From positions 32,001 through 96,000 of the IMG/VR virus record IMGVR_UViG_3300001598_000034: DNA of 64,000 nt, one strand, 5' to 3'. Below, piece by piece: positions 33-23,009 of the stretch; position 1 is the first letter of the stretch, and each line of letters opens with the position of its first letter. The translations under genes and the position numbers were made by a program. Origin of the DNA: a virus (taxonomy: Duplodnaviria > Caudoviricetes). Below the pieces are notes generated by a model. It was not told the origin of the DNA. It made no database searches and saw nothing but the letters and a program-made list of their open reading frames with translations.

Positions 33-1919
33 TTATTTAAACAAAGCAGTTTGTTCTTCTGTGGCAGGATGTAACTCAATAACCTTAGTATCGTCTGTAT
101 CATTGCAAACACTTGAGAACTCATTTACAAGTGCAGCTTCAGATCTGCTATTGAAAATTAATTCATCAATACTAATAACTCCACCGTTCGCCAAGTGTTC
201 ATCTAAGCACACCTCAAAATATTTTTCAAGCATAGACAAAGACTCATATTCAGAATCACCTTCATCAGCATCATCAACAAGAGATGCAAAGTTAGTAATC
301 ACATCCTCAATAAACTCAATATACTCTCTCCTCAATTTCTCTGGTGCATGAATAATATGAGCTAAGAAATCAATAAAGTAGTAATTAGTTTCAGAGTGGT
401 CATGAATAAACTGACTAATAAATAAAACATTCTGATCAAAAACATTAGAAATTAACGCTTTTTGATATTTAGACAAACCTTCCCAGAATGCAATCAAATT
501 CCAATTATTATTTACAACATCCGTAGAGTTGAGAGTAAGTGCCGCGATCTTAAACCCGTCAGCAGTGTATAGAGAATTAAACAAATCACTGTCTTCTGCT
601 AAATCATAGCTGCTAGCTGAAATATAGGTTTTAAGCAAGTAAGCATGCGCTCTGGCATCCATGTTTTTGATAAGAGACTCAGTATTATAGGTATTAATAA
701 GATTATACCCATTAGTATAGTCAATTGCATCCGGAATACCAATGTCGTCTCTAACCTCTACCATATCACGCGCATCGAAGAATCTAATAATGTCACTATT
801 ATTAACATTAGCAGCATTATAATCAAAAGACATGCTTTCAAGATAATTCATGGTACCGATTTCAATGTCTTCCAATAACTCTGCAGGTGCTGGAGTTACT
901 TGTGCTACTCTTAATGCTTGAGGTGCTTGTGTTTCTTTTTCTTCTTTTTTGCTTTCTGTTGAGCGATTACTGACAGAGTATTTATTAACATAAGTACCTG
1001 TTTCATAGTATCTACCATAGTAAGGATTTGTAAGATATTCTGAACAATAGTAGCCTTTAGCCACAGCATAAGAAGAAGCATTCTTAGTAACCTTAGTTTT
1101 AATTTCCGGATTACCAGGACCAATATTTTCCTTTTTCAGCATAGCTTTCTCTTCTTCCTCTGTAAGAGCAAAGATATCACTAAGTTTTAGATCTTTTTGG
1201 AAACTGTTGCATTTAACACGTGCTTTATATGTAACGTCCTTATCAAAAGTACCAAGTACTACATAGAAACATACTTCATTTTCATTTGCATCATCAATAC
1301 CACTCCAAAAAGCAGACATAGAATTATGTGAATGAAGTTCACACACAAGCTCATTCTCAGTGCGCAACGTTTGAATCTTAGGATCATCTGGATAACTTAC
1401 ACTAGCCTTAGAAATCTTTTGTTCAGGATAATAAATAAAGTATTCATCTGTGCCACGTTTCTTATAAATCTGTGCAGCAGCTTCATCACCAGAATCTTTA
1501 TAAATAATATTAAAAGACCCAATAATTTCTTTGATAAGATCAGCAGGAATTTTATTATTAATTGTAAGTTCTTTAATTCCCTCATTTGCATCTTCAAGTA
1601 ATGCACACTCTTTTACTTTTTCTACAACCTGTATATTATTTCCTCCAACGTGCATACTTGTTTTCACATAAAGACCACCTTTAGCAGGGAAATAAATATT
1701 CTGTTCAGTATCAGCTTCAGCTTCAGCAGCATAAACAGAATCCACAAATTTATTTCGTGCAAACAACATAGTCTTTTTAATTCTTTCAAGAGCAGCTTCT
1801 TGTTCCTTAGTACGTTTAGGAGTAGTTGTTACTTGTTCTACAGTAGTGCCACTACCTCCACTGTACTTTTTCCATAAATTTTTATAATCTTCATAATATT
1901 TAGAATAATTATACGTCAT
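33..1919 (-). CDS. Prokaryotic JAB/MPN+ metallopeptidase (PRTRC protein A-like) with long C-terminal extension
   Basis: Upstream Glu (GDEAAAQI) plus ELHSHNSMSAFWSGIDDANE = JAMM HxH-x7-S-x2-D motif; neighbours E2 and Ubl genes. Confidence 0.85.
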   Translation of the reverse strand: MTYNYSKYYEDYKNLWKKYSGGSGTTVEQVTTTPKRTKEQEAALERIKKTMLFARNKFVDSVYAAEAEADTEQNIYFPAKGGLYVKTSMHVGGNNIQVVEKVKECALLEDANEGIKELTINNKIPADLIKEIIGSFNIIYKDSGDEAAAQIYKKRGTDEYFIYYPEQKISKASVSYPDDPKIQTLRTENELVCELHSHNSMSAFWSGIDDANENEVCFYVVLGTFDKDVTYKARVKCNSFQKDLKLSDIFALTEEEEKAMLKKENIGPGNPEIKTKVTKNASSYAVAKGYYCSEYLTNPYYGRYYETGTYVNKYSVSNRSTESKKEEKETQAPQALRVAQVTPAPAELLEDIEIGTMNYLESMSFDYNAANVNNSDIIRFFDARDMVEVRDDIGIPDAIDYTNGYNLINTYNTESLIKNMDARAHAYLLKTYISASSYDLAEDSDLFNSLYTADGFKIAALTLNSTDVVNNNWNLIAFWEGLSKYQKALISNVFDQNVLFISQFIHDHSETNYYFIDFLAHIIHAPEKLRREYIEFIEDVITNFASLVDDADEGDSEYESLSMLEKYFEVCLDEHLANGGVISIDELIFNSRSEAALVNEFSSVCNDTDDTKVIELHPATEEQTALFK

Positions 1920-1938
1920 GCAAATATCATCCCTTTCA

Positions 1939-2739
1939 TTAATTACCTCCTATTATATTCTCAAACAAGTTAGTTACATTTGTGCCTATTCTTTTCAAAT
2001 ATTGACATGGGAATTCCTTAATCTCTGGTCTAGTTCCTAATTTAGAAATAAGTTCATACTGAGTTGTAATCTCATTTCCAAGAATACCGCCTGGAACTGG
2101 CATCCAATGAGACCCATCACAGACATCTAAATCATGGTTACCGATGGAAGTATAAAGCATAGTTGGGAAATAGTCTACATTAGATTCCGGTACAATTCCA
2201 AGAATATCGTGTCCCATACAACAATTATGCCCAGAATTAAATACATTAGTAAATGGGTAACGATAATAAGTAGTCATCTCCAGAGGCATATTAGTTGTAC
2301 TTAATGCATATGCGTATTGACCATTAAAATTAAACTCACGCTTTCCACAGTCTTCGACTAAAGTTCCTAAAGTAATAATACATAATGGAGGAAACGGTAT
2401 TCTAAACATTCGTAAATTATTTACATTATAGCCTTTGAAACGTTGGTCATGAGAATCTGGAATATATTCATCTAAAGACCCAAACTTAGAAATATCTCTT
2501 GGCGTCCATGATAATACAATATCATTTATGCATCCGTCATAAATAAACAAATACCCACGTCTTCTACCACGATCTATAATATGTCTGCAATTCTTAGGAA
2601 TCTTCATATTAACTTCAATAGTATCAGATGCCAAAGCCTTACATATAGAAGCGGTATCTACTATTTTAGTAGATACCGTTCCATCGCAAAGATCTATTAT
2701 TACTTTTGCAGTTCCATCATTTTTAAAATCTACAAGCAT
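1939..2739 (-). CDS. Prokaryotic E2 family protein (Prok-E2_D / PRTRC protein B-like)
   Basis: YRYPFTNVFNSGHNCCMG resembles the PFxNV-x2-G-x2-CxG catalytic segment; adjacent to JAB. Confidence 0.7.
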   Translation of the reverse strand: MLVDFKNDGTAKVIIDLCDGTVSTKIVDTASICKALASDTIEVNMKIPKNCRHIIDRGRRRGYLFIYDGCINDIVLSWTPRDISKFGSLDEYIPDSHDQRFKGYNVNNLRMFRIPFPPLCIITLGTLVEDCGKREFNFNGQYAYALSTTNMPLEMTTYYRYPFTNVFNSGHNCCMGHDILGIVPESNVDYFPTMLYTSIGNHDLDVCDGSHWMPVPGGILGNEITTQYELISKLGTRPEIKEFPCQYLKRIGTNVTNLFENIIGGN

Positions 2740-2741
2740 TA

Positions 2742-3449
2742 TTATGCCTTTCTAAATACAAATCTACCCGTTTCAGGATCCAATACAAACCTCCCAGATT
2801 TAGGGGCTGACTCTTCTTTTACTGCCACTACCTCTTCTCTAGCATTCTCTTCCTCAATGGCGTCAAGCTCATTAAGTTCGCTAGCAGTAGGTTCCTCATC
2901 GTCTTTTTCTTTATCATCGGCATCTAGAAAGTGCTCGCCTTCAAGTAAAGAATTAATACGCTCTTCAAAATCCGCATCATCAAACTTTACTCTATCAGTA
3001 GTTTTTTTAGGGGCTTCAATTTCTTTTTTAGCATGCACCGCCAAATATTCACGAGCAGCATCGATTTCTCCATCTGGACAATTCATCCACATAATATTAC
3101 CATTATAAATAGGCACACCCTTTTGATATTGAGTATTACCATTAACAGTAATCTCGCGGTATGCTTGAACATTACCATTATTATTAGTAACTTTCATAAC
3201 AGATTCTGCACGTTCAACACGGTCCTCAGGAACCTCTTTTTCAACAGCTTCATCAATGCTCTTCTTCAATTGAGCAAAGTCTTTACGCATTTGCTCTCTA
3301 GCATCCGCTATCTTAATATTGATCTCATCCTGTACACTTTGGAATTCTTTAAACATATGATCCAAAGCTAATACAATATTCCCGGGGTTAGACTCAAACT
3401 TTTCAAAATTAGGTAACATCTTATTTCTCCTTTTCATTAAATACTTCAA
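2742..3449 (-). CDS. Hypothetical acidic coiled-coil protein (start probably MLPNF at 3419)
   Basis: ORF tightly packed in operon; AAGGAG RBS before 3419. Confidence 0.6.
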   Translation of the reverse strand: MKYLMKRRNKMLPNFEKFESNPGNIVLALDHMFKEFQSVQDEINIKIADAREQMRKDFAQLKKSIDEAVEKEVPEDRVERAESVMKVTNNNGNVQAYREITVNGNTQYQKGVPIYNGNIMWMNCPDGEIDAAREYLAVHAKKEIEAPKKTTDRVKFDDADFEERINSLLEGEHFLDADDKEKDDEEPTASELNELDAIEEENAREEVVAVKEESAPKSGRFVLDPETGRFVFRKA

Positions 3450-4272
3450 TAATTTTCTGGGTAGGCAATTTCTTAAATTTTTCTACAAACTTAATACATC
3501 CATCCTTAGCTACTGTTGCAAATGCCCCAGTATCATGTACACTTTCAGAACATTTCTGTATTACATATTCTTTTTGAAAATTTTCAAGAAGCTGTATTCT
3601 ACAAACACGGCAAGTGTCAGTAGTAGCTACAGGATTTTTACCAAAAGAAATATCTGGTACATAACCAATGCCTAACCCTCTGTTTAACGATTCATAAACG
3701 TCAGGAAGATAATGTTCCAAGAAACAACCTAGCTTAACACAATATTTTAACTGTGCTAATTCTACTTTAAATCTACTAGCAGTATAATTATTATCAAAAT
3801 AATTATAAGGAACATTATATACTAGCGTATTTTTATTTTTTAAATAATCAATATACTCATTTGACTTTGCCAAATTATAAACAGAGATAATCCATGCCCA
3901 TTTAGTAAAATCAAAAATAGCTGGTGGTAAGGTAATAATTGTCTTACTTAATTCACAATGTGTATCTATCATCAAATTACTATTATGTATATATTTCATA
4001 ACTAATTTATTACAGTCTTCTTTATACATAGTAGTAAAGTTATATAATGGAGTGTCATATATTTCCCAAAAGCAATTTTCATGAACATCAGTCAATGGGA
4101 TATATTTCTTAATTTCTCTTAAATAATTCCAAATACCCTCTAAACATCTTAATTTAGGAGATGCATTTAATAATGTCTCTTTAGTAATGTTTTCAGGATG
4201 GTTTACACCATTCATATAAGAGTAACTAAACAAACTTTCGATAAACATTGTTGCATTAGGTATCATACTCAT
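3421..4272 (-). CDS. Hypothetical protein in Ubl/E2/JAB operon
   Basis: 283 aa ORF with ATGA-type overlap with upstream gene. Confidence 0.6.
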   Translation of the reverse strand: MSMIPNATMFIESLFSYSYMNGVNHPENITKETLLNASPKLRCLEGIWNYLREIKKYIPLTDVHENCFWEIYDTPLYNFTTMYKEDCNKLVMKYIHNSNLMIDTHCELSKTIITLPPAIFDFTKWAWIISVYNLAKSNEYIDYLKNKNTLVYNVPYNYFDNNYTASRFKVELAQLKYCVKLGCFLEHYLPDVYESLNRGLGIGYVPDISFGKNPVATTDTCRVCRIQLLENFQKEYVIQKCSESVHDTGAFATVAKDGCIKFVEKFKKLPTQKIIEVFNEKEK

Positions 4273-4565
4273 ATAAGAATTCTCCTCTTTCTAGATTTCT
4301 TTGATTCAGGAATTTTATTCATCAAGATTAATTGTAATGCTTCAAGGGATTCAACATTATTTCTCCTAATGTTTTCATTAACAGTATGTAAATAGTACAT
4401 TCCATAATCGAGGAGGTCATCCTTTGGAAAGTCCTTATCTAATAGTTCTTCTAAGGTATTAGCCTCAAATAAAGATTTAATATTATTATCGTTCTTATCT
4501 AAATACACATTAGGTAAAGACTTGACACCAGCAAGTAAGTCTAATTCAGTATTATCGTTTTGCAT
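4269..4565 (-). CDS. Hypothetical protein
   Basis: 98 aa ORF with AAGGAG RBS. Confidence 0.6.
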   Translation of the reverse strand: MQNDNTELDLLAGVKSLPNVYLDKNDNNIKSLFEANTLEELLDKDFPKDDLLDYGMYYLHTVNENIRRNNVESLEALQLILMNKIPESKKSRKRRILI

Positions 4566-4612
4566 CTACATAATGTTCTCCTTTTTACTAAAAACGAAAA
4601 TTTTAAAAACCT

Positions 4613-4705
4613 TCGCCCTATGAATATTAAAATATACTATTCTTGCCGAAGACGCAATGATCTCCTCAAAGGCAGTAATAATATATTTTAATATTCATAG
4701 GGCGA
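4613..4705. repeat. Perfect 24-bp inverted repeat (IR1), putative RNA processing stem
   Basis: tcgccctatgaatattaaaatata (4613-4636) / tatattttaatattcatagggcga (4682-4705). Confidence 0.9.
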
Positions 4706-4809
4706 TTAAATAACTTGATCAGCTGTTTTTGTTTTACGTTTTTTATTTATATGTTAAATATCTCTTAGCTGACCTATTTAAGTCGCCCTATGTAGTGACT
4801 AAGGGAGCT

Positions 4810-4885
4810 GATTAGCAGCCATTAGTCTGTGTACGTACAGACTAACGGGTCAGATTAGCAGCCCTTAGTCTGTGCACGTACAGAC
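4810..4885. repeat. 33-nt direct duplication of the Ubl gene 3' end (2 mismatches)
   Basis: gattagcagccattagtctgtgtacgtacagac (4810-4842) vs gattagcagcccttagtctgtgcacgtacagac (4853-4885). Confidence 0.9.
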
Positions 4886-5100
4886 AAGTTTGCACTGTAT
4901 ACATGCATACCATTTGCATCCACGCCATCATCACTCCAAGAGGAAATGCGTGCGTTAGTGGGGAGGTTAGGAACTTGAGCACGAACTGCCTCAATGCAGT
5001 CTTCATCACTGAGAACTTCATCAGCAGTCATGAAGGGGAACTCAAAATCTCCATATCCAGCCACACGAATAATCTTCTTAATCATTTCATTTTGTTGCAT
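4855..5100 (-). CDS. Prokaryotic ubiquitin-like protein (PRTRC protein C / Prok_Ub-like)
   Basis: 81 aa; VPNLPTNA and C-terminal QTKG-C resemble the YPELTTA...GTKG pattern of PRTRC-C; first gene of the E2/JAB operon; AAGGAG RBS. Confidence 0.7.
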   Translation of the reverse strand: MQQNEMIKKIIRVAGYGDFEFPFMTADEVLSDEDCIEAVRAQVPNLPTNARISSWSDDGVDANGMHVYSANLSVRAQTKGC

Positions 5101-5159
5101 AGTAGTAATCTCCTTAAAATTTTAAATAGTTTTTGGTTGTACTTTAACTGCCAGCTTGC

Positions 5160-5260
5160 ATACTATTCGTGATTAATATAACTCGATAACGATCTCTTAA
5201 TCTCCGAATCTCACTTTCAGGCGTAATTATCGCCGATACTTTCACGACAGTTTCGTATAT
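5160..5260 (-). ncRNA. Putative structured RNA module in operon leader
   Basis: Minus-strand pairings acugucguga/ucacga-a-uagu and cgauaau/guuaucg, with G-U wobbles only on the minus strand. Confidence 0.4.
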
Positions 5261-5310
5261 ACTATATTTCGGCTCCACTCAAAATATAGTTCTATAGATG
5301 AACCATTATC

Positions 5311-5517
5311 TATAGATATAATATTCTTTGTAACCGCGATCATCTCCCGAGATGTACTGGACGGTTCCTGGCAATGATCATTCGAGGCGCTGCCGGTACC
5401 GGCGGGCGACACTCTTCATACGGGCGTATGCTCTAAGCATACGCCATGAAATAGAAAGAAAGAGAATTCCCTTTCATTTTTTAAATTAAAGGTCTTACAA
5501 AGAATATTATATCTATA
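5311..5517. ncRNA. Putative ncRNA module closed by perfect 23-bp inverted repeat (IR2), GC-rich multi-stem interior
   Basis: Arms 5311-5333 / 5495-5517; internal stems ggcgtatgct/agcatacgcc, gccg-gtac-cggc, gatcat/atgatc, catctc/gagatg. Confidence 0.6.
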
Positions 5518-5558
5518 TACAATGTATATATTTATTTACAATGGATATGCATAAATAT

Positions 5559-5685
5559 AATAACAAGTATAGGTAGTGCTTTTAGGAGGATTTTAAGTTA
5601 TTTATCGAAAGGAGGTGTTATTTTATATGCATCAAAGGAGGTGTGATGTTTTAAAAGAGACAAGCACCAACCTATACTTGTTATT
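5559..5685 (-). ncRNA. Putative ncRNA module closed by perfect 16-bp inverted repeat (IR3), carrying three anti-SD-like motifs
   Basis: Arms 5559-5574 / 5670-5685; plus-strand taggagga 5583-5590, aaaggaggtgt 5608-5618 and 5634-5644. Confidence 0.55.
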
Positions 5686-5691
5686 CGAGCT

Positions 5692-5993
5692 AATAGATAT
5701 TTAAATATGCTAACTAACAAAAATTTTGTGAAGTCTATTTGAACAAAAATCATAAAATGTCGGTAGCCTCTCTGTGGATTATTGGAATTCGTCTATGTGC
5801 AGGATCGGATAACGGTCAAGATACAAGTATAACAGGATCTTGCCGATTATCAGATCCTTGCATCTATGAGACGTTTCCAATACTCCACAGGAGGGCGTAC
5901 GAATTTTGTGATGTTTGTGCAAATTAAAAGTTGGAAGAGGAAGAACTCTTCCTCCATATGATAACTCTTAGTTAGCATATTTAAATATCTATT
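5692..5993. ncRNA. Putative ncRNA module closed by perfect 26-bp inverted repeat (IR4), enclosing a ~185-nt imperfect rod hairpin
   Basis: Arms 5692-5717 / 5968-5993; interior 5738-5924 self-complementary (ctgtgga/tccacag, tattggaa/ttccaata, ggatc/gatcc, caagat/atcttg). Confidence 0.6.
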
Positions 5994-6009
5994 GTAAAAA
6001 AGGAGGGAC

Positions 6010-6041
6010 TTCTATACCGAGCTTTTCAGCACGGTATAGAA
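6010..6041. repeat. Hairpin ttctataccg-N12-cggtatagaa
   Basis: 10-bp perfect stem just downstream of the minus-strand promoter at 6071-6107. Confidence 0.7.
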
Positions 6042-6070
6042 GGTAGGAAGAAAAAATCTAAAGCATCCTA

Positions 6071-6107
6071 CATAATACTTATACCATTTTTTACTCAATT
6101 TTTTCGA
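6071..6107 (-). promoter_or_regulatory. Class B phage promoter
   Basis: TCGAAAAAAT-N12-GGTATAAGTATTATG; same 37-nt layout as 6183-6219 and 50077-50113. Confidence 0.7.
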
Positions 6108-6182
6108 CTACAAAATTGGTATTAAATAGCATAAGTATTCAGCTCCCGTAAACCACTCATTGGAACATACTAAATATCTCCG

Positions 6183-6219
6183 CATAATACTTATACCATT
6201 TTATACTATATTTTTTTGA
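6183..6219 (-). promoter_or_regulatory. Class B phage promoter
   Basis: TCAAAAAAAT-N12-GGTATAAGTATTATG. Confidence 0.7.
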
Positions 6220-6229
6220 TCTAAAAAAC

Positions 6230-6240
6230 AGGTATAATAT
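6230..6240 (+). promoter_or_regulatory. Class A phage promoter (AGGTATAATAT)
   Basis: Exact 11-mer recurring in intergenic regions, co-oriented with downstream genes. Confidence 0.75.
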
Positions 6241-6275
6241 CAACTAGAAAATACTATATTAGGAAGGAGTCTTTT

Positions 6276-7031
6276 ATGACTACAGATAAAAACGATAAAG
6301 TATCTATTGGAGAAAAAGTTAAAACAAAGCATTCTATTCTAACTTATAATCCAGATACAAATTCTAATACCTTTCTAGACTATACCGAAAAGACCTTACA
6401 TACAAACTATGATAAGCTATATGAAATCAAAACAAAGAGAGGCTATAGCATAAAGGTAACAAATGACCATAGCTTAATAACTAATGGTTCTGAAGACTTT
6501 TTTGAAAAGGTGTCTCCAGATAAAGCTCTTGGTAAGTTTGTTCCAGTTCTGTATAGTTTAAAATGTGGATTTAAAAAGTACAAAACAGCAAAAGACTTAA
6601 TCAATGATAAGCATACAATAGAATTAACTGCAGAATTATTAAAGTATGATGATATGACTATATGCGCAATAATATCCTTATTGTCTGTACCAGATAAAGA
6701 TGATGAAAAGTTAATGCATATTAGATACTTTAATAAACTAGAAAAATACATTATTCTTTTACTACTTGCAAGGTTATCTTATTTTGTAGAGAAAATAACA
6801 GATGAAGAAATCTTAGCAACACTTTATAAAGGAAAACAAATACCAGAAAATAATAAACTAGTAGATGCAGAAGAAGTAGTTAACGACAATCCTGCTAATC
6901 CATACTTATCACTTCCTTACTCCTGGGATGAAATAATAGAAGTGAATGAAGTAGAGAGAGAAGAGATTACCTATGATTTCTCAGTGCCGCGATATCCATT
7001 ATTTATGGCGAATGGAATCATAGTATTTGAT
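6276..7031 (+). mobile_element. Intein fragment (putative IntC, 252 aa) lacking block A, ending VFD before +1 Thr
   Basis: Block B LYEIKTKRGYSIKVTNDH; block F/G TYDFSVPRYPLFMANGIIVFD/T. Confidence 0.8.
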
Positions 7032-8984
7032 ACAGTAATGGTTCATACACCTGTATCAGCAGAAGCCAGACAAGAAGCATTAGACAAGATGCTTCCTAGC
7101 AAAAACTTATTCCATCCACGCACAATGGCGCCTATACTAATGCCACGTCAGGAACATATCTTCGGTTTTTATCAAGCATCAAAAGATATTCCAGAGTTAA
7201 GAAAGAGCAATGTTAAAGCAGAATCCGTTATGGATTTGGATAAACTTCTTCAAGATATTAAAATGGGAAAAGTAAAACCAGATATGCCTGTAAGATATCA
7301 AGGGCAATTAACAACAGCAGGAATTGCAATAGCTATAGGTAATTTGCCACCGATGCTTAGAGACTACAATATGGTATGGGATAAAAAGAATATTACAAGA
7401 GTTATGGGAATGTTGGCAAAGCAAGAACCAACTAAATACCAATTTGTAGTAGATCTTTTTAAAGAGCTAGGTGGTTTATATGCTTATAAATTAGGATCAA
7501 CTTTCAAACTATCAGATTTTGATTTACAAAAGTTGAAAAAAATGCGCGATGCGTATTTCTCTAAAACAGACAAAGCTTTAGCAAAGATTGATAATAGCAA
7601 TTTATCTAAACAAGAGAAAGAACAGCGCATTGGTGAAGAACTACGTAAAGCACAAGCATTTGCCTCCAATTTAATGGAACAGCAAACAAATAATACTTTC
7701 AATAGACTTTATGTATCCGGAGCAAAAGGAAGTGGAGGACAGATAACACAGATTTTATCTAGTCCTACAGTAGTAGCAGACCCTAAAAACAGATTGATCC
7801 CTTCTCTTATTCACCATTCATATTTAGAAGGACTAAGCCCTGCAGACTATTTTACATCAAGTTACGGTACACGTAAAGGTAGTATTGCAGCTAAATTATT
7901 TGTAGCACCTGCAGGAGCTCTTTCCAAAGAAATAATGGGAAATACTCTAGAAGTAGTAGTATCATGTAAAGAATGTGGTACTGGTAGAGGGTTAAAGAGA
8001 GACATAGATGATAAAGAAAATGTTCTCTATAGACTAGAGGCAGGAACAAATAAATTCATAGATCCAAATTATTATGAACAGTTAAAAAGAAAAGGAATCA
8101 GAGAAGTAACCGTTCGTAGCCCTGCAACATGTGAAGCAAGAGAAGGTGTTTGCCAACATTGTTTCGGTTTTGATGAAAAGATGCAATTCCCAGAAATAGG
8201 CGAAAATGTCGGAGTAATGGCGTCCCAAGCAGTATCCGAAGTAATTTCTCAGAATACCATTTCTTCTAAGCATACAGCAGGAACTGCAGCAGAAGATAAC
8301 TATGGATTTAATGAAGTTAAAGCTTTCTATAATATGTCTTCTAAGTTCTCTGGAGCAGCTGTTATTTCTGAGGTATCTGGTAAAGTATCTAAGATTGAGC
8401 AGTCAGCAACTGGAGGTATGAATGTATTTATAGACAAAAAGAAATACTTCGTACCCCCTGGAAGAAGGGTTACAGTTGTCTTGGGTCAGGATATTAAAGC
8501 TGGAGATCCTATTTCAAATGGAATTATGCCATTTAGCAAAATAGTTCCTCACAAAGGTATAGAACAAGGTAGGCAACTCTTTATTGAAGCAGCTAACGAT
8601 ATTTATAATAAAGCTGGTGCACATACAATAAAGAAGAACCTAGAAACAATTTCTCGTGGACTTATTAACTATGTAGAGATAACAGACCCAGGAGATTTTG
8701 ATGAGTATGCAGAAGGAGATATTGTGGATTACAATAAGCTCATGGGAGATCTGCGTATGCACCCTGGTAAAAAGAAACCAGTATATCACCCAATCCAAAG
8801 TGGCACAAATAAATCCCCAACATTTAAAAACGACTGGTTAGATAACTTTGGCTTTAAGTTCTTAAAACAAAAACTTATTGACAACGCAGCAACGTTCTCT
8901 AAATCTCCGAAGAAACAATATAATCCAATCGCACCCTATGCACGCGGAGTTGGATTCGGAAAAGGTGAAAACGGAAAATACTAA
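6276..8984 (+). CDS. rpoC: DNA-directed RNA polymerase beta' subunit, C-terminal part, with N-terminal split-intein fragment
   Basis: TVMVHTPVSAEARQEA (=QMAVHVPLS after NADFDGD), SGAKGS, SYLEGL, bridge helix YGTRKG, Zn site CGT...RSPATC...CQHCFG, GENVGVMASQAVSE, trigger loop KHTAG. Confidence 0.92.
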   Translation: MTTDKNDKVSIGEKVKTKHSILTYNPDTNSNTFLDYTEKTLHTNYDKLYEIKTKRGYSIKVTNDHSLITNGSEDFFEKVSPDKALGKFVPVLYSLKCGFKKYKTAKDLINDKHTIELTAELLKYDDMTICAIISLLSVPDKDDEKLMHIRYFNKLEKYIILLLLARLSYFVEKITDEEILATLYKGKQIPENNKLVDAEEVVNDNPANPYLSLPYSWDEIIEVNEVEREEITYDFSVPRYPLFMANGIIVFDTVMVHTPVSAEARQEALDKMLPSKNLFHPRTMAPILMPRQEHIFGFYQASKDIPELRKSNVKAESVMDLDKLLQDIKMGKVKPDMPVRYQGQLTTAGIAIAIGNLPPMLRDYNMVWDKKNITRVMGMLAKQEPTKYQFVVDLFKELGGLYAYKLGSTFKLSDFDLQKLKKMRDAYFSKTDKALAKIDNSNLSKQEKEQRIGEELRKAQAFASNLMEQQTNNTFNRLYVSGAKGSGGQITQILSSPTVVADPKNRLIPSLIHHSYLEGLSPADYFTSSYGTRKGSIAAKLFVAPAGALSKEIMGNTLEVVVSCKECGTGRGLKRDIDDKENVLYRLEAGTNKFIDPNYYEQLKRKGIREVTVRSPATCEAREGVCQHCFGFDEKMQFPEIGENVGVMASQAVSEVISQNTISSKHTAGTAAEDNYGFNEVKAFYNMSSKFSGAAVISEVSGKVSKIEQSATGGMNVFIDKKKYFVPPGRRVTVVLGQDIKAGDPISNGIMPFSKIVPHKGIEQGRQLFIEAANDIYNKAGAHTIKKNLETISRGLINYVEITDPGDFDEYAEGDIVDYNKLMGDLRMHPGKKKPVYHPIQSGTNKSPTFKNDWLDNFGFKFLKQKLIDNAATFSKSPKKQYNPIAPYARGVGFGKGENGKY

Positions 8985-20765: not shown

Positions 20766-23009
20766 GTGTACACGAATATAGAAAATTTAAAAAAAGAAGC
20801 AGGAGTTATTGGCACAGCCAAAGCATTAGCATATGGAACTGTTGGATATCATCTTGGAAAACATGTAAAAGAACAGGAATATAAAGATGAAATTATAGAA
20901 AATATGCGAAGACAAGCTGAGGCACACAATAAATATGCTTCTTTAGAACGCAGAGTATTAGAAAAAAAAGCGGCAAGTATACTAAGTAAAGCTATAGGAA
21001 GGGGTTTATCTTCGGGGTTTAATAGAGTAAAGAACTTTTTCAGAAAACCAGTAAAATTTAATCCAGGTGCTGTCAATAAAAGTACAACTAATATAGCAGC
21101 AGGAACACAAGGAGTTTGGACACCATCAATAAAATCAACGTCTAACACAATAAATAGTATTTCTGATATCACTAAAGGAAATTCTTTCTATAGAAATGGT
21201 TTTTATTCTGCTCCAAAATCTATTGTCGAAAAAAGCAAAGATCTAGTAAAGAAAAACTTGCCAAAACTTCCTTCAATTGAAGGAGCAAAAGTAAAGGCTA
21301 AGGAAAGCATTCAAAAAGCCAATGAAAGTATTAAAAAGTTTCCAAAAGCAAGAGAAGAAACAAAAGCTTTACAATCTCAAACCAATCCTGGTGCATTTGG
21401 ACCCGTTGTTGACGGAACAAAGCCTTCTCAAAGTACATATGCTGTTAGTGGAAATTTATTTGGATCCAAAGGAAAACGTGGAAGATACTTAGGAAATGAA
21501 GTATCTACGGAATTTTCCTCAGAAGGATTATCAAAAATAGCACCTACAAATCAATTTGATGGAATATTGCAGAATCCAATAAACGGTGAAGCAACTGGAA
21601 AAGCTATAGAAACACAAAATATAGAAAAACTACGAAAAGCAAAACCAGTAAAAGTTGACCCCAAAACACAGTATACAATTCCAGCTACTAATAAGACAAC
21701 TAATCCAAAAATTGATAAACATACTATCAGTACTAAAGGAACAGTTACTGGACAAATAGCCAGTGGACAAAATAAGGCTGTAGAATATCTTAAACCCCTT
21801 GAACTAAAAAAGGATATTACAGGAACTCCTATAAAAAATTCCAACCCAGAACTGAATTTATCCATAGAGCCACAAACTAAAGCAGTTATTAGAAACGCAG
21901 AAGCAGGTGCATATGATAATCTAATAGGGAAAGGAAAAGTTTGGAAACCTGGTAAAGATCCTATTTCTGTACGTAGAGCAGCAGAAGAGGCAGCAAAAAA
22001 TCCTAAAAAGTCTTGGTGGGATAAAGCAAAAGAACGCTTCTCTGAAGCTCCCAAAACAAAAGAACAGCGTTTTGCAGAAAATAGATTTGGGGCAGGGGAA
22101 CCTATTCAACCAGATACAAATTGGTCTGAAGTATACAATAGTACTAAGAACTGGGTAAAAAATAACCCGGGAAAAACAATGGCCGGAGCCGGAGCACTAG
22201 GCGGTATCGGTTTATATTCAATGTCATCTAGTGGCAATAAAAATTTAGATAATTACTATTATGGAGGATATAATCCAATGTATAATCAATATAACGCAAT
22301 GAATAAAACTGCAGCAAGTTATGGTAAAAATTTATTTTCTGATTTAGCTACTTTTGCAAAAAAGAACAAAGGGTATTTTGGGAGAACAGGTGGCGCATTT
22401 GGCGACGCAGTACAAGCATATAACCCTTTCGCTAAGGAAAACATTAAAACTTTTGGAAACTTGATCGCTCCTAACAATCCATCCACCGCATTCCTTGGCA
22501 AGACCCGTAGAGTATTAGGCAATGCTATCGCAAGTAATCCTAATGCCGTACGTGCGGCAGTAGCTGGTGTAGGAACCGGAACAGCTGGGTATGGCGCCTA
22601 TAAAATGGTTACTTCTTCTGTAAATGAAGATGATATGGCCCTTGAATACGATGCAGCAGCTAACCAAGCAGCTTTTGCAGAAAATATGTACAATGAAGCA
22701 GTAGAAAAAATGGCTTCTATCGAAGACTACATGGAGAAAGAAGCAGCAAATCCTGTTGCACGTGCAGTATATAATACAGCTGGAAAAGCCGTACGTTACG
22801 GAAACAAGCTCCAAGATAGTGCTAATTATTTCGGATTAGGCTCAGCTTTCCGTAAAAAAGGCGTGGGTAATGCAATAAAAGCACGTACCGGAGCAAGCAT
22901 TGCAACATTGGCCAGCTTGGCTCAAAAGAATCCTAACGTAGCAGCAGCTCTCGCAGCAGGTGCAGTAGGCGCAGGCGGCGTAGCTGGAGCTCGCGCAGTA
23001 ATGTACTAA
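20766..23009 (+). CDS. Putative internal head/ejection polyprotein
   Basis: Leader MYTNIENLKKEAG; basic segments with Gly/Ala hydrophobic stretches separated by K-x-A sites; GGAGGT RBS, GTG start. Confidence 0.55.
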   Translation: MYTNIENLKKEAGVIGTAKALAYGTVGYHLGKHVKEQEYKDEIIENMRRQAEAHNKYASLERRVLEKKAASILSKAIGRGLSSGFNRVKNFFRKPVKFNPGAVNKSTTNIAAGTQGVWTPSIKSTSNTINSISDITKGNSFYRNGFYSAPKSIVEKSKDLVKKNLPKLPSIEGAKVKAKESIQKANESIKKFPKAREETKALQSQTNPGAFGPVVDGTKPSQSTYAVSGNLFGSKGKRGRYLGNEVSTEFSSEGLSKIAPTNQFDGILQNPINGEATGKAIETQNIEKLRKAKPVKVDPKTQYTIPATNKTTNPKIDKHTISTKGTVTGQIASGQNKAVEYLKPLELKKDITGTPIKNSNPELNLSIEPQTKAVIRNAEAGAYDNLIGKGKVWKPGKDPISVRRAAEEAAKNPKKSWWDKAKERFSEAPKTKEQRFAENRFGAGEPIQPDTNWSEVYNSTKNWVKNNPGKTMAGAGALGGIGLYSMSSSGNKNLDNYYYGGYNPMYNQYNAMNKTAASYGKNLFSDLATFAKKNKGYFGRTGGAFGDAVQAYNPFAKENIKTFGNLIAPNNPSTAFLGKTRRVLGNAIASNPNAVRAAVAGVGTGTAGYGAYKMVTSSVNEDDMALEYDAAANQAAFAENMYNEAVEKMASIEDYMEKEAANPVARAVYNTAGKAVRYGNKLQDSANYFGLGSAFRKKGVGNAIKARTGASIATLASLAQKNPNVAAALAAGAVGAGGVAGARAVMY

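Follow-up and report, generated by a model that had tools for sequence, protein, structure and literature searches.

Two of three stem-closed intergenic modules of a large uncultured phage very probably belong to a family of template RNAs associated with a retron-like reverse transcriptase

The window analyzed here is a 64-kb stretch comprising bases 32001-96000 of the linear IMG/VR phage record IMGVR_UViG_3300001598_000034, which is 146,590 bp long and 92% complete. It contains a 1,176-bp gap between two divergent genes, one opening a ubiquitin-like operon and the other encoding part of the RNA polymerase beta' subunit, and this gap is occupied by an array of inverted-repeat modules, designated units D, X and E. 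Positions refer to the window unless preceded by "genome", which denotes the whole 146.6-kb record; structured units are lettered A to F and X. An initial annotation had proposed that the gap holds no credible gene and forms a polycistronic cassette of structured non-coding RNAs (ncRNAs), closed by AT-rich inverted repeats. The three long inverted repeats and the hairpin at 6009-6042 were found where it had placed them, and the small open reading frames (ORFs) of the gap have no Pfam or PHROG match; the three modules themselves carry no sign of coding. Perfect inverted repeats of at least 14 nt, with arms 40-450 nt apart, number 16 in the genome versus 0-1 in shuffled sequences. The minus-strand folding z-scores are -7.9 for D (5311-5517), -7.7 for X (5559-5685) and -15.1 for E (5692-5993), and X is separated from E by 6 nt and from D by 41 nt. 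An additional structure at 5160-5260, followed by small hairpins, did not hold up, as the segment 5101-5310 folds with a z-score of -0.84 and 42 of 200 shuffles fold equally well. In the Rfam scan, no family reached the gathering score anywhere in the window, and a threshold of E ≤ 10 applied to 4500-6500 brought up nothing meaningful either, in line with the earlier statement that no Rfam family is recognizable, and a tRNA scan of the region found none. A DNA similarity search of 50,697 phage records gave no match to the region, and neither did a scan of IMG/VR with the exact pattern of the E arm.

Units D and E share their layout with four further units of the same phage, and all six lie on the strand that encodes its reverse transcriptase (RT), the minus strand. 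In this orientation each unit begins with a 5' arm ending in AA, followed by a G-A junction, a spacer of 12-37 nt and a 7-8 bp hairpin, hereafter the handle, with an ANUU tetraloop closed by a G-C pair. It continues with a U-rich linker and one or more GC-rich hairpins, and ends with a G and the 3' arm. The terminal AA and the spacer range were read in the five units A to E. Across the family, the perfect terminal stems measure 11-33 bp and the units 129-312 nt. The module interiors had been described as unrelated, which is correct for their sequence; their architecture and short motifs are, in contrast, common to D, E and the four units elsewhere. A scan of the whole genome for the handle hairpin recovered all of units A to E and added a sixth, F. 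R1, a covariance model of the handle, finds array members only over 318 kb, plus one marginal match. The latter, at 21804-21839 on the minus strand (26 bits, E 0.009), lies inside a plus-strand gene, has a closing repeat of just 9 nt and is probably due to chance.

Table 1. Position of the units and neighboring features. Coordinates are those of the window unless marked "genome"; R1 scores are those of the covariance model of the handle.
Feature	Position	Strand	Description
Unit D	5311-5517	minus	5' arm 5495-5517; 3' arm 5311-5333; R1 29.3 bits; candidate priming G 5494; G at 5334 precedes 3' arm
Unit D inverted repeat	5304-5333/5495-5524		30 nt at 93%; perfect core 5311-5333/5495-5517
Unit D handle hairpin	5458-5475		7 bp including one G-U; loop AAUU closed by G-C
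Unit D interior	5335-5450		GC-rich, several hairpins; U-rich linker between handle and interior
Unit X	5559-5685	minus	~24-bp stem closing an 80-nt, largely unpaired loop
Unit X inverted repeat	5559-5574/5670-5685		16 nt, perfect
Unit E	5692-5993	minus	5' arm 5968-5993; 3' arm 5692-5717; R1 29.8 bits; candidate priming G 5967; G at 5718 precedes 3' arm
Unit E inverted repeat	5692-5717/5968-5993		26 nt, perfect
Unit E handle hairpin	5936-5955		8 bp; loop AGUU closed by G-C; U-rich linker next
Unit E rod hairpin	~5725-5925		~200 nt
Unit A	genome 18668-18862	minus	
Unit B	genome 18867-19005	minus	
Unit C	genome 19120-19354	minus	
Unit F	genome 115552-115713	minus	directly after the RT stop codon
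RT gene	genome 115722-117299	minus	525 aa, YADD; sole RT gene in the genome
Leader	5996-6071	minus	5' hairpin 6043-6071; 15-bp terminator-like hairpin 6009-6042; U6 run 6001-5996
Proximal promoter-like motif	6071-6090	minus	direct repeat of the distal motif
Distal promoter-like motif	6183-6202	minus	AAAATGGTATAAGTATTATG; extended -10 type, TGGTATAAG
81-aa gene	4855-5100	minus	first gene of the ubiquitin-like/E2/JAB/E1 operon
5' untranslated region	5101-5310	minus	belongs to the 81-aa ubiquitin-like gene; outside the structured array
902-aa gene	6276-8984	plus	C-terminal half of RNA polymerase beta' behind an intein-like domain

The same units are found next to RT genes in related phages. Homologues of the RT, with 33-45% identity, occur in the same phage family, and one is carried by the 104-kb contig that bears the closest beta' gene. 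In the loci L018, L019 and L020/L021, the 0.8-1.2 kb of same-strand non-coding DNA that follows the RT gene is made of four or five tandem units with the exact layout described above. Among eight further IMG/VR loci (L022-L029), seven show between 2 and 8 handle hairpins behind the RT gene. The exception, L026, is cut off by the end of its contig, and the complete record that holds it (G005) has units, which run across the record ends. As a background, a regular expression for the handle gave 26 matches in 622 kb (both strands) of 72 ordinary retron-RT viral loci, never two on the same strand of a locus. Both complete genomes, G001 and G005, carry their units beside the RT and nowhere else. 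The present phage has one unit beside its RT and five dispersed: D and E lie 78 kb from the RT gene on the same strand, whereas units A to C cluster 98 kb away. Among the phages examined, it is the only one with units far from the RT.

Comparison of the units gives an indication of the strand on which they act. Across 29 units the handle is 94% paired with 75 double-sided changes, a percentage that is partly circular since the aligned hairpins were chosen by a pairing rule. Handle positions include 13 G-U pairs in the RT sense against one non-pair. A G-A junction after the 5' arm and a G before the 3' arm are present in 17 of 17 units from this phage, L018, L019, L022 and one unit of L024. The interiors behave differently from the handle, as they fold better in the antisense, or cDNA, orientation in 20 of 25 units, with 76 G-U pairs antisense versus 44 sense. 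This asymmetry fits an RNA handle combined with a DNA product. With DNA parameters, the predicted cDNA strand of E folds as a rod (z -10.6), that of D more weakly (z -2.3). The family, its conserved layout, its strand and its linkage to the RT in relatives are shown directly. Because the units are linked to the RT in relatives, and because this phage encodes such an enzyme, we read D and E as templates for cDNA synthesis rather than free small RNAs, and their membership of an RT-associated template-RNA family is very probable.

We compared the RT to known enzymes using PADLOC models and solved structures. The best PADLOC match is RT_III-A (6.6e-44), and all 25 of the 25 matches listed are retron types. 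The closest solved structures are likewise all retron RTs, namely Kva2, Ec67, Ec78 and Ec86. The protein carries an insertion of ~95 aa and a C-terminal extension, and we found no cultured phage with this RT. A 206-aa Cys-rich protein, weakly homologous to 252-290 aa proteins at the same position in relatives, is encoded just upstream of the RT. The proteins neighboring the RT in this phage, L018, L019 and L020 have no PADLOC match at E ≤ 0.1. Between the promoter-like motif of the RT operon and the 206-aa gene (L017:2940-3230, minus strand) lies a ~90-nt structure closed by a stem (ACATTAGA...TCTAATGT) that does not contain a handle; next comes a possible ORF of 32 aa, preceded by a strong ribosome-binding site.

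From these features we infer how D and E might be transcribed, recognized in trans, primed and copied. The tandem promoters at 6071-6202 would produce one leader RNA carrying E, X and D ahead of the ubiquitin-like operon. The closing stems of 23-26 bp would delimit the units and probably permit their excision. The RT, probably together with the conserved Cys-rich partner, would recognize the G-ANUU-C hairpin, and DNA synthesis would begin beside the closing stem. The invariant G after the 5' arm is a candidate 2'-OH primer as in retrons, although this retron-like priming, proposed by analogy, is more tentative than the copying itself. The enzyme would then copy the GC-rich hairpin region as far as the U-rich linker, so that each unit would yield its own small hairpin single-stranded DNA (ssDNA), of ~200 nt for E and ~110 nt for D. 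On balance, and judging from sequence, D and E are likely to be copied in trans by the phage RT into such hairpin ssDNA. An early anti-defense role, or one in conflicts between phages, would be our guess for these DNAs.

Besides the partial circularity of the pairing percentage, several observations weigh against this reading. The best NCBIfam match of the RT is retron_St85_RT (1.5e-38), but its 132.7 bits fall below the curated cut-off of 235. Retron RTs are defined by a NAXXH motif in region X and a VTG triplet in region Y (PMC7736814), whereas here region X reads DAASA, without the N and H, and the triplet reads LLG, of which only the G is kept, invariant in an alignment of the 13-member clade. 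The G-A junction is absent in the L020 and L028 lineages. The antisense folding bias could stem from base composition instead of selection on a DNA product. Action of the RT on D and E over a distance of 78 kb is assumed. Within the array, a terminator-like hairpin with its U6 run sits between the promoters and E, so that read-through would be needed, and unit X does not fit the template model.

The closest published analogue of this system is UG27, an RT of gut phages with ncRNA arrays. Mestre et al. (2022, PMC9226505) described UG27 as a class 2 UG/Abi RT that is carried by phages and accompanied by a conserved ncRNA. Its variable arrays consist of ~150-nt units that each give a hairpin cDNA of 50-100 nt, and cDNA production required the RT and two accessory proteins (bioRxiv 10.64898/2026.09.22.753630). 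In both cases a phage RT is followed by tandem, sequence-diverse and separately folded units that keep short motifs only, the number of units differs between relatives, and some loci have extra units in nearby intergenic regions. Unlike those of UG27, the units described here combine perfect terminal stems of 11-33 bp with a G-A junction and a G-ANUU-C hairpin, and their distance from the RT can be 78-98 kb. Membership of UG27 was considered and rejected. The RTs of the clade match retron models best in 13 of 13 cases, with no UG27 model among the 25 listed, and their motif is YADD here versus YSDD in UG27. There is no sORF/bORF pair, and the neighboring proteins have no PADLOC match. The motif AUCN7UANAG has one sense-strand match in six arrays, none of them in the units of this phage, and its genome-wide count is below that of shuffles; UUYA was not searched. 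By RT model ranking, accessory proteins and unit motifs the system is not UG27 and therefore represents an analogous design in a retron-like RT lineage.

Retrons combine one RT with one template and serve bacterial defense. The units resemble their templates, as in Retron-Eco1 (Ec86), by the terminal inverted repeats, the G after the 5' repeat, the small recognition stem-loop with its U-rich loop and the long hairpin before the 3' repeat, and the best relatives of the RT in sequence and structure are retron RTs. In Retron-Eco1, the terminal repeat is immediately followed by the guanosine that serves as primer, and the site recognized by the RT is a U-rich loop within a stem-loop (PMC11754653). 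The present system differs from retrons in having six templates per RT, located downstream of the RT or far from it instead of contiguous and upstream, and in being part of a large phage that is apparently virulent, not of a bacterial defense island. It has no recognizable effector, its RT departs from the NAXXH and VTG motifs, and its closing stems far exceed typical a1/a2 repeats in length. A literature search on natural phage retron arrays yielded only "retron arrays" built by engineering and catalogues that list retron-like viral RTs.

The closing stems also bear on a function of the units as RNA only, in which a polycistronic transcript would be cut at the stems, for example by RNase III, to release stable RNAs (sponges, regulators or RT scaffolds) and no DNA would be made. 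Perfect stems of 23-26 bp are good double-stranded RNA substrates and plausibly allow RNase III to release the units, which are in tandem with gaps of 6-41 nt, and D and E are distant from the RT. This explanation is nevertheless unlikely. It leaves the tight, lineage-wide linkage between units and RT gene without a reason, the layout of the units mirrors that of retron templates, the interiors fold better in the cDNA sense, and the analogous UG27 arrays are proven templates. RNase III cuts the early transcripts of T7 and SP82/SPO1 at stems that separate mRNAs. As in those phages, stems here lie between functional segments of a predicted polycistronic early transcript; they differ in that each putative cleavage stem encloses a self-contained ncRNA unit of an RT-linked family. 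The cassette envisaged by the initial annotation is supported in part, as a minus-strand, promoter-fed set of separate structured ncRNAs. The annotation missed the RT-linked handle of D and E, and nothing was found in support of its suggestion that a phage RNA ligase circularizes the RNAs.

An RNA-level function is also suggested by unit X. Its closing stem is of the same kind as those of D and E, but X has neither G-A junction nor handle hairpin and is not matched by R1. Its open loop contains, on the minus strand, two copies of CACCUCCUUU and one of AUCCUCCUA, which resemble the 3' tail of 16S rRNA (anti-Shine-Dalgarno). Read on the plus strand, these motifs are very strong Shine-Dalgarno sequences with no credible ORF. 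AGGAGGT has 11 sites in the 146.6 kb, both strands together, and two of them are within X. A combined scheme may be imagined in which template units are movable cassettes, transferred from the RT array into the leaders of other early operons and copied there in trans by the retron-like RT, the D/E site replacing a gene, while X was remodeled into an RNA (or DNA copy) that displays three anti-Shine-Dalgarno copies and disturbs translation initiation. We consider this scheme doubtful.

Transcription of the array would start at its head, where the two minus-strand promoter-like motifs reported earlier are indeed present (AAAATGGTATAAGTATTATG). The motif, AAAAtGGTATAAGTATtATG with the core GGTATAAGTA, looks like an extended -10 promoter. 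It has seven copies in the genome, all on the minus strand, and four of the seven precede unit clusters or the RT operon: two at the array, one before B/A and one before the RT operon. The L020 array is headed by the same motif. As they have a promoter-like motif in common, the units and the RT may be co-expressed early. A hairpin immediately follows each copy of the motif, in some cases with a U-run, and the order promoter, hairpin and U-run is also observed before unit B (genome 19070) and the RT operon (genome 118235). At the array, the leader ends 3 nt before unit E. Its RNA of ~75 nt, ending in CCCUCCUUUUUU, might exist as a small RNA of its own, provided that termination is efficient. 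A sigma-70 promoter scan showed no enrichment (14 sites versus 8.9 ± 2.8 expected). Its two minus-strand "terminators" are handle hairpins; since these hairpins are present inside every unit of the tandem arrays, they are not read as terminators.

This arrangement raises the question of whether the array acts in cis, controlling the ubiquitin-like operon by attenuation, stability or processing, with the likeness to RT units reflecting a shared protein-binding hairpin only. Both dispersed clusters indeed have a promoter motif on one side and, on the other, the opening gene of a minus-strand operon, and the promoter is followed by a terminator-like hairpin. Such a role is very unlikely, because in relatives the units lead nothing but close transcription units, with convergent genes next, and because the relatives express the homologous operon from an intergenic region of 170-310 nt without any unit.

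We examined the corresponding region in relatives, starting from ~45 metagenomic homologues of the beta' protein with 47-67% identity. In five contigs (beta' identity 56-60%), the position of the array is occupied by a 115-132 aa gene and the divergent intergenic region is merely 170-310 nt. A tblastn search found no remnant of this gene in 5100-6275. Thus, the module block is confined to this phage lineage. For the two closest relatives (L009 and L010), the sequence upstream of the beta' gene is limited to 81 and 274 nt. Both contigs break at the repeated promoter motif, and the homologous region lies beyond the contig ends; L010:1-274 contains AAAGGAGGT, followed by a 35-codon hydrophobic ORF. 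Homologues of the 81-aa gene were sought to recover the region in these two relatives and none were found, nor did a search with beta' protein patterns find a close relative.

The replacement of the relatives' gene and the breakage of two contigs just upstream of the beta' gene could also be accounted for at the DNA level, the repeats being cruciforms of a replication origin or recombination site in a divergent intergenic region, or decayed insertions resembling miniature inverted-repeat transposable elements (MITEs). The region further lies at a switch in gene orientation and a local minimum of cumulative GC skew, and includes AT-rich stretches and one 19-nt tandem repeat pair at 5508-5545. 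Both the origin and the MITE possibility had been raised by the initial annotation as alternatives, and neither gained support. The modules are single-copy in the 146.6-kb genome and their flanks have no target-site duplications. GC skew follows transcription direction throughout the genome and is thus uninformative for an origin. The G-U pairs of the handle argue for a single-stranded RNA from one strand, and homologous arrays sit behind RT genes, not at divergent junctions. A better origin candidate is found at genome 15039-15732, an iteron-laden palindrome with GTGTAACA repeats. Taken together, a DNA-level explanation is highly improbable. The palindrome at genome 15039-15732 (L016:3039-3732) is itself a nested structure of ~460 nt with eight GTGTAACA/TGTTACAC motifs (z -13.9). 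It adjoins AT-rich hairpins and two GGTATAAT promoters, and is a candidate replication origin or protein-binding array. A role of the units as restriction decoys was rejected as well: the genome has no marked palindrome avoidance and the units no telling enrichment of avoided palindromes.

With D and E taken as members of the RT-associated template family, the locus indicates that a retron-like RT lineage of uncultured 120-170 kb phages reached the same multi-template design as UG27, the only published natural many-template RT, whose RT family is a different one. It points as well to templates that can function, or are at least retained intact, when tens of kilobases separate them from the enzyme. 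If correct, this would provide a second, independent setting in which to study the use that phages make of sets of small hairpin DNAs, and natural trans-acting retron-like templates with very long closing stems, of interest for tools that produce ssDNA. Orphan structured modules in phage intergenic regions might then be assigned by seeking an RT elsewhere in the genome.

The genes around the array show features of their own. The ubiquitin-like conjugation operon spans 33-5100 on the minus strand, and its 81-aa first gene, homologous to 73-82 aa genes of relatives, ends in QTKGC; syntenic genes in relatives match ThiF/E1, Prok-E2_D and Prok-JAB. At 4806-4885, the 3' end of the 81-aa gene (...SVRAQTKGC*) is nearly copied ~40 nt downstream as SVRTQTNGC*, and each copy holds a 10-bp hairpin. 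Such a duplication resembles a scar left by recombination or by the exchange of a cassette. Between the 81-aa gene and a 98-aa gene, a 93-nt hairpin with perfect 24-nt arms is located at 4613-4705. The 295-nt intergenic stretch that contains it folds with a z-score of -8.1 and is devoid of the RT handle; Rfam matches to this hairpin are spurious and of the miRNA type only. On the other side of the array, the beta' gene begins with an intein-like PF14890 domain (6276-7050), which meets beta' at TVMVHTPVS, just past the position of the catalytic NADFDGD motif; the motif itself is missing from the 902-aa ORF. Most of the ~45 beta' homologues (854-905 aa) have this N-terminal domain, with PF14890 on record for 35, and it is thus a conserved feature rather than a recent insertion. 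Finally, a 745-aa fusion of polynucleotide kinase (AAA_33), phosphatase (Metallophos) and T4 Rnl1-type RNA ligase is encoded on the minus strand at genome 19988-22225 (L016:7988-10225), ~630 bp upstream of the unit cluster A-C and on the same strand, with an 86-aa ORF between them.

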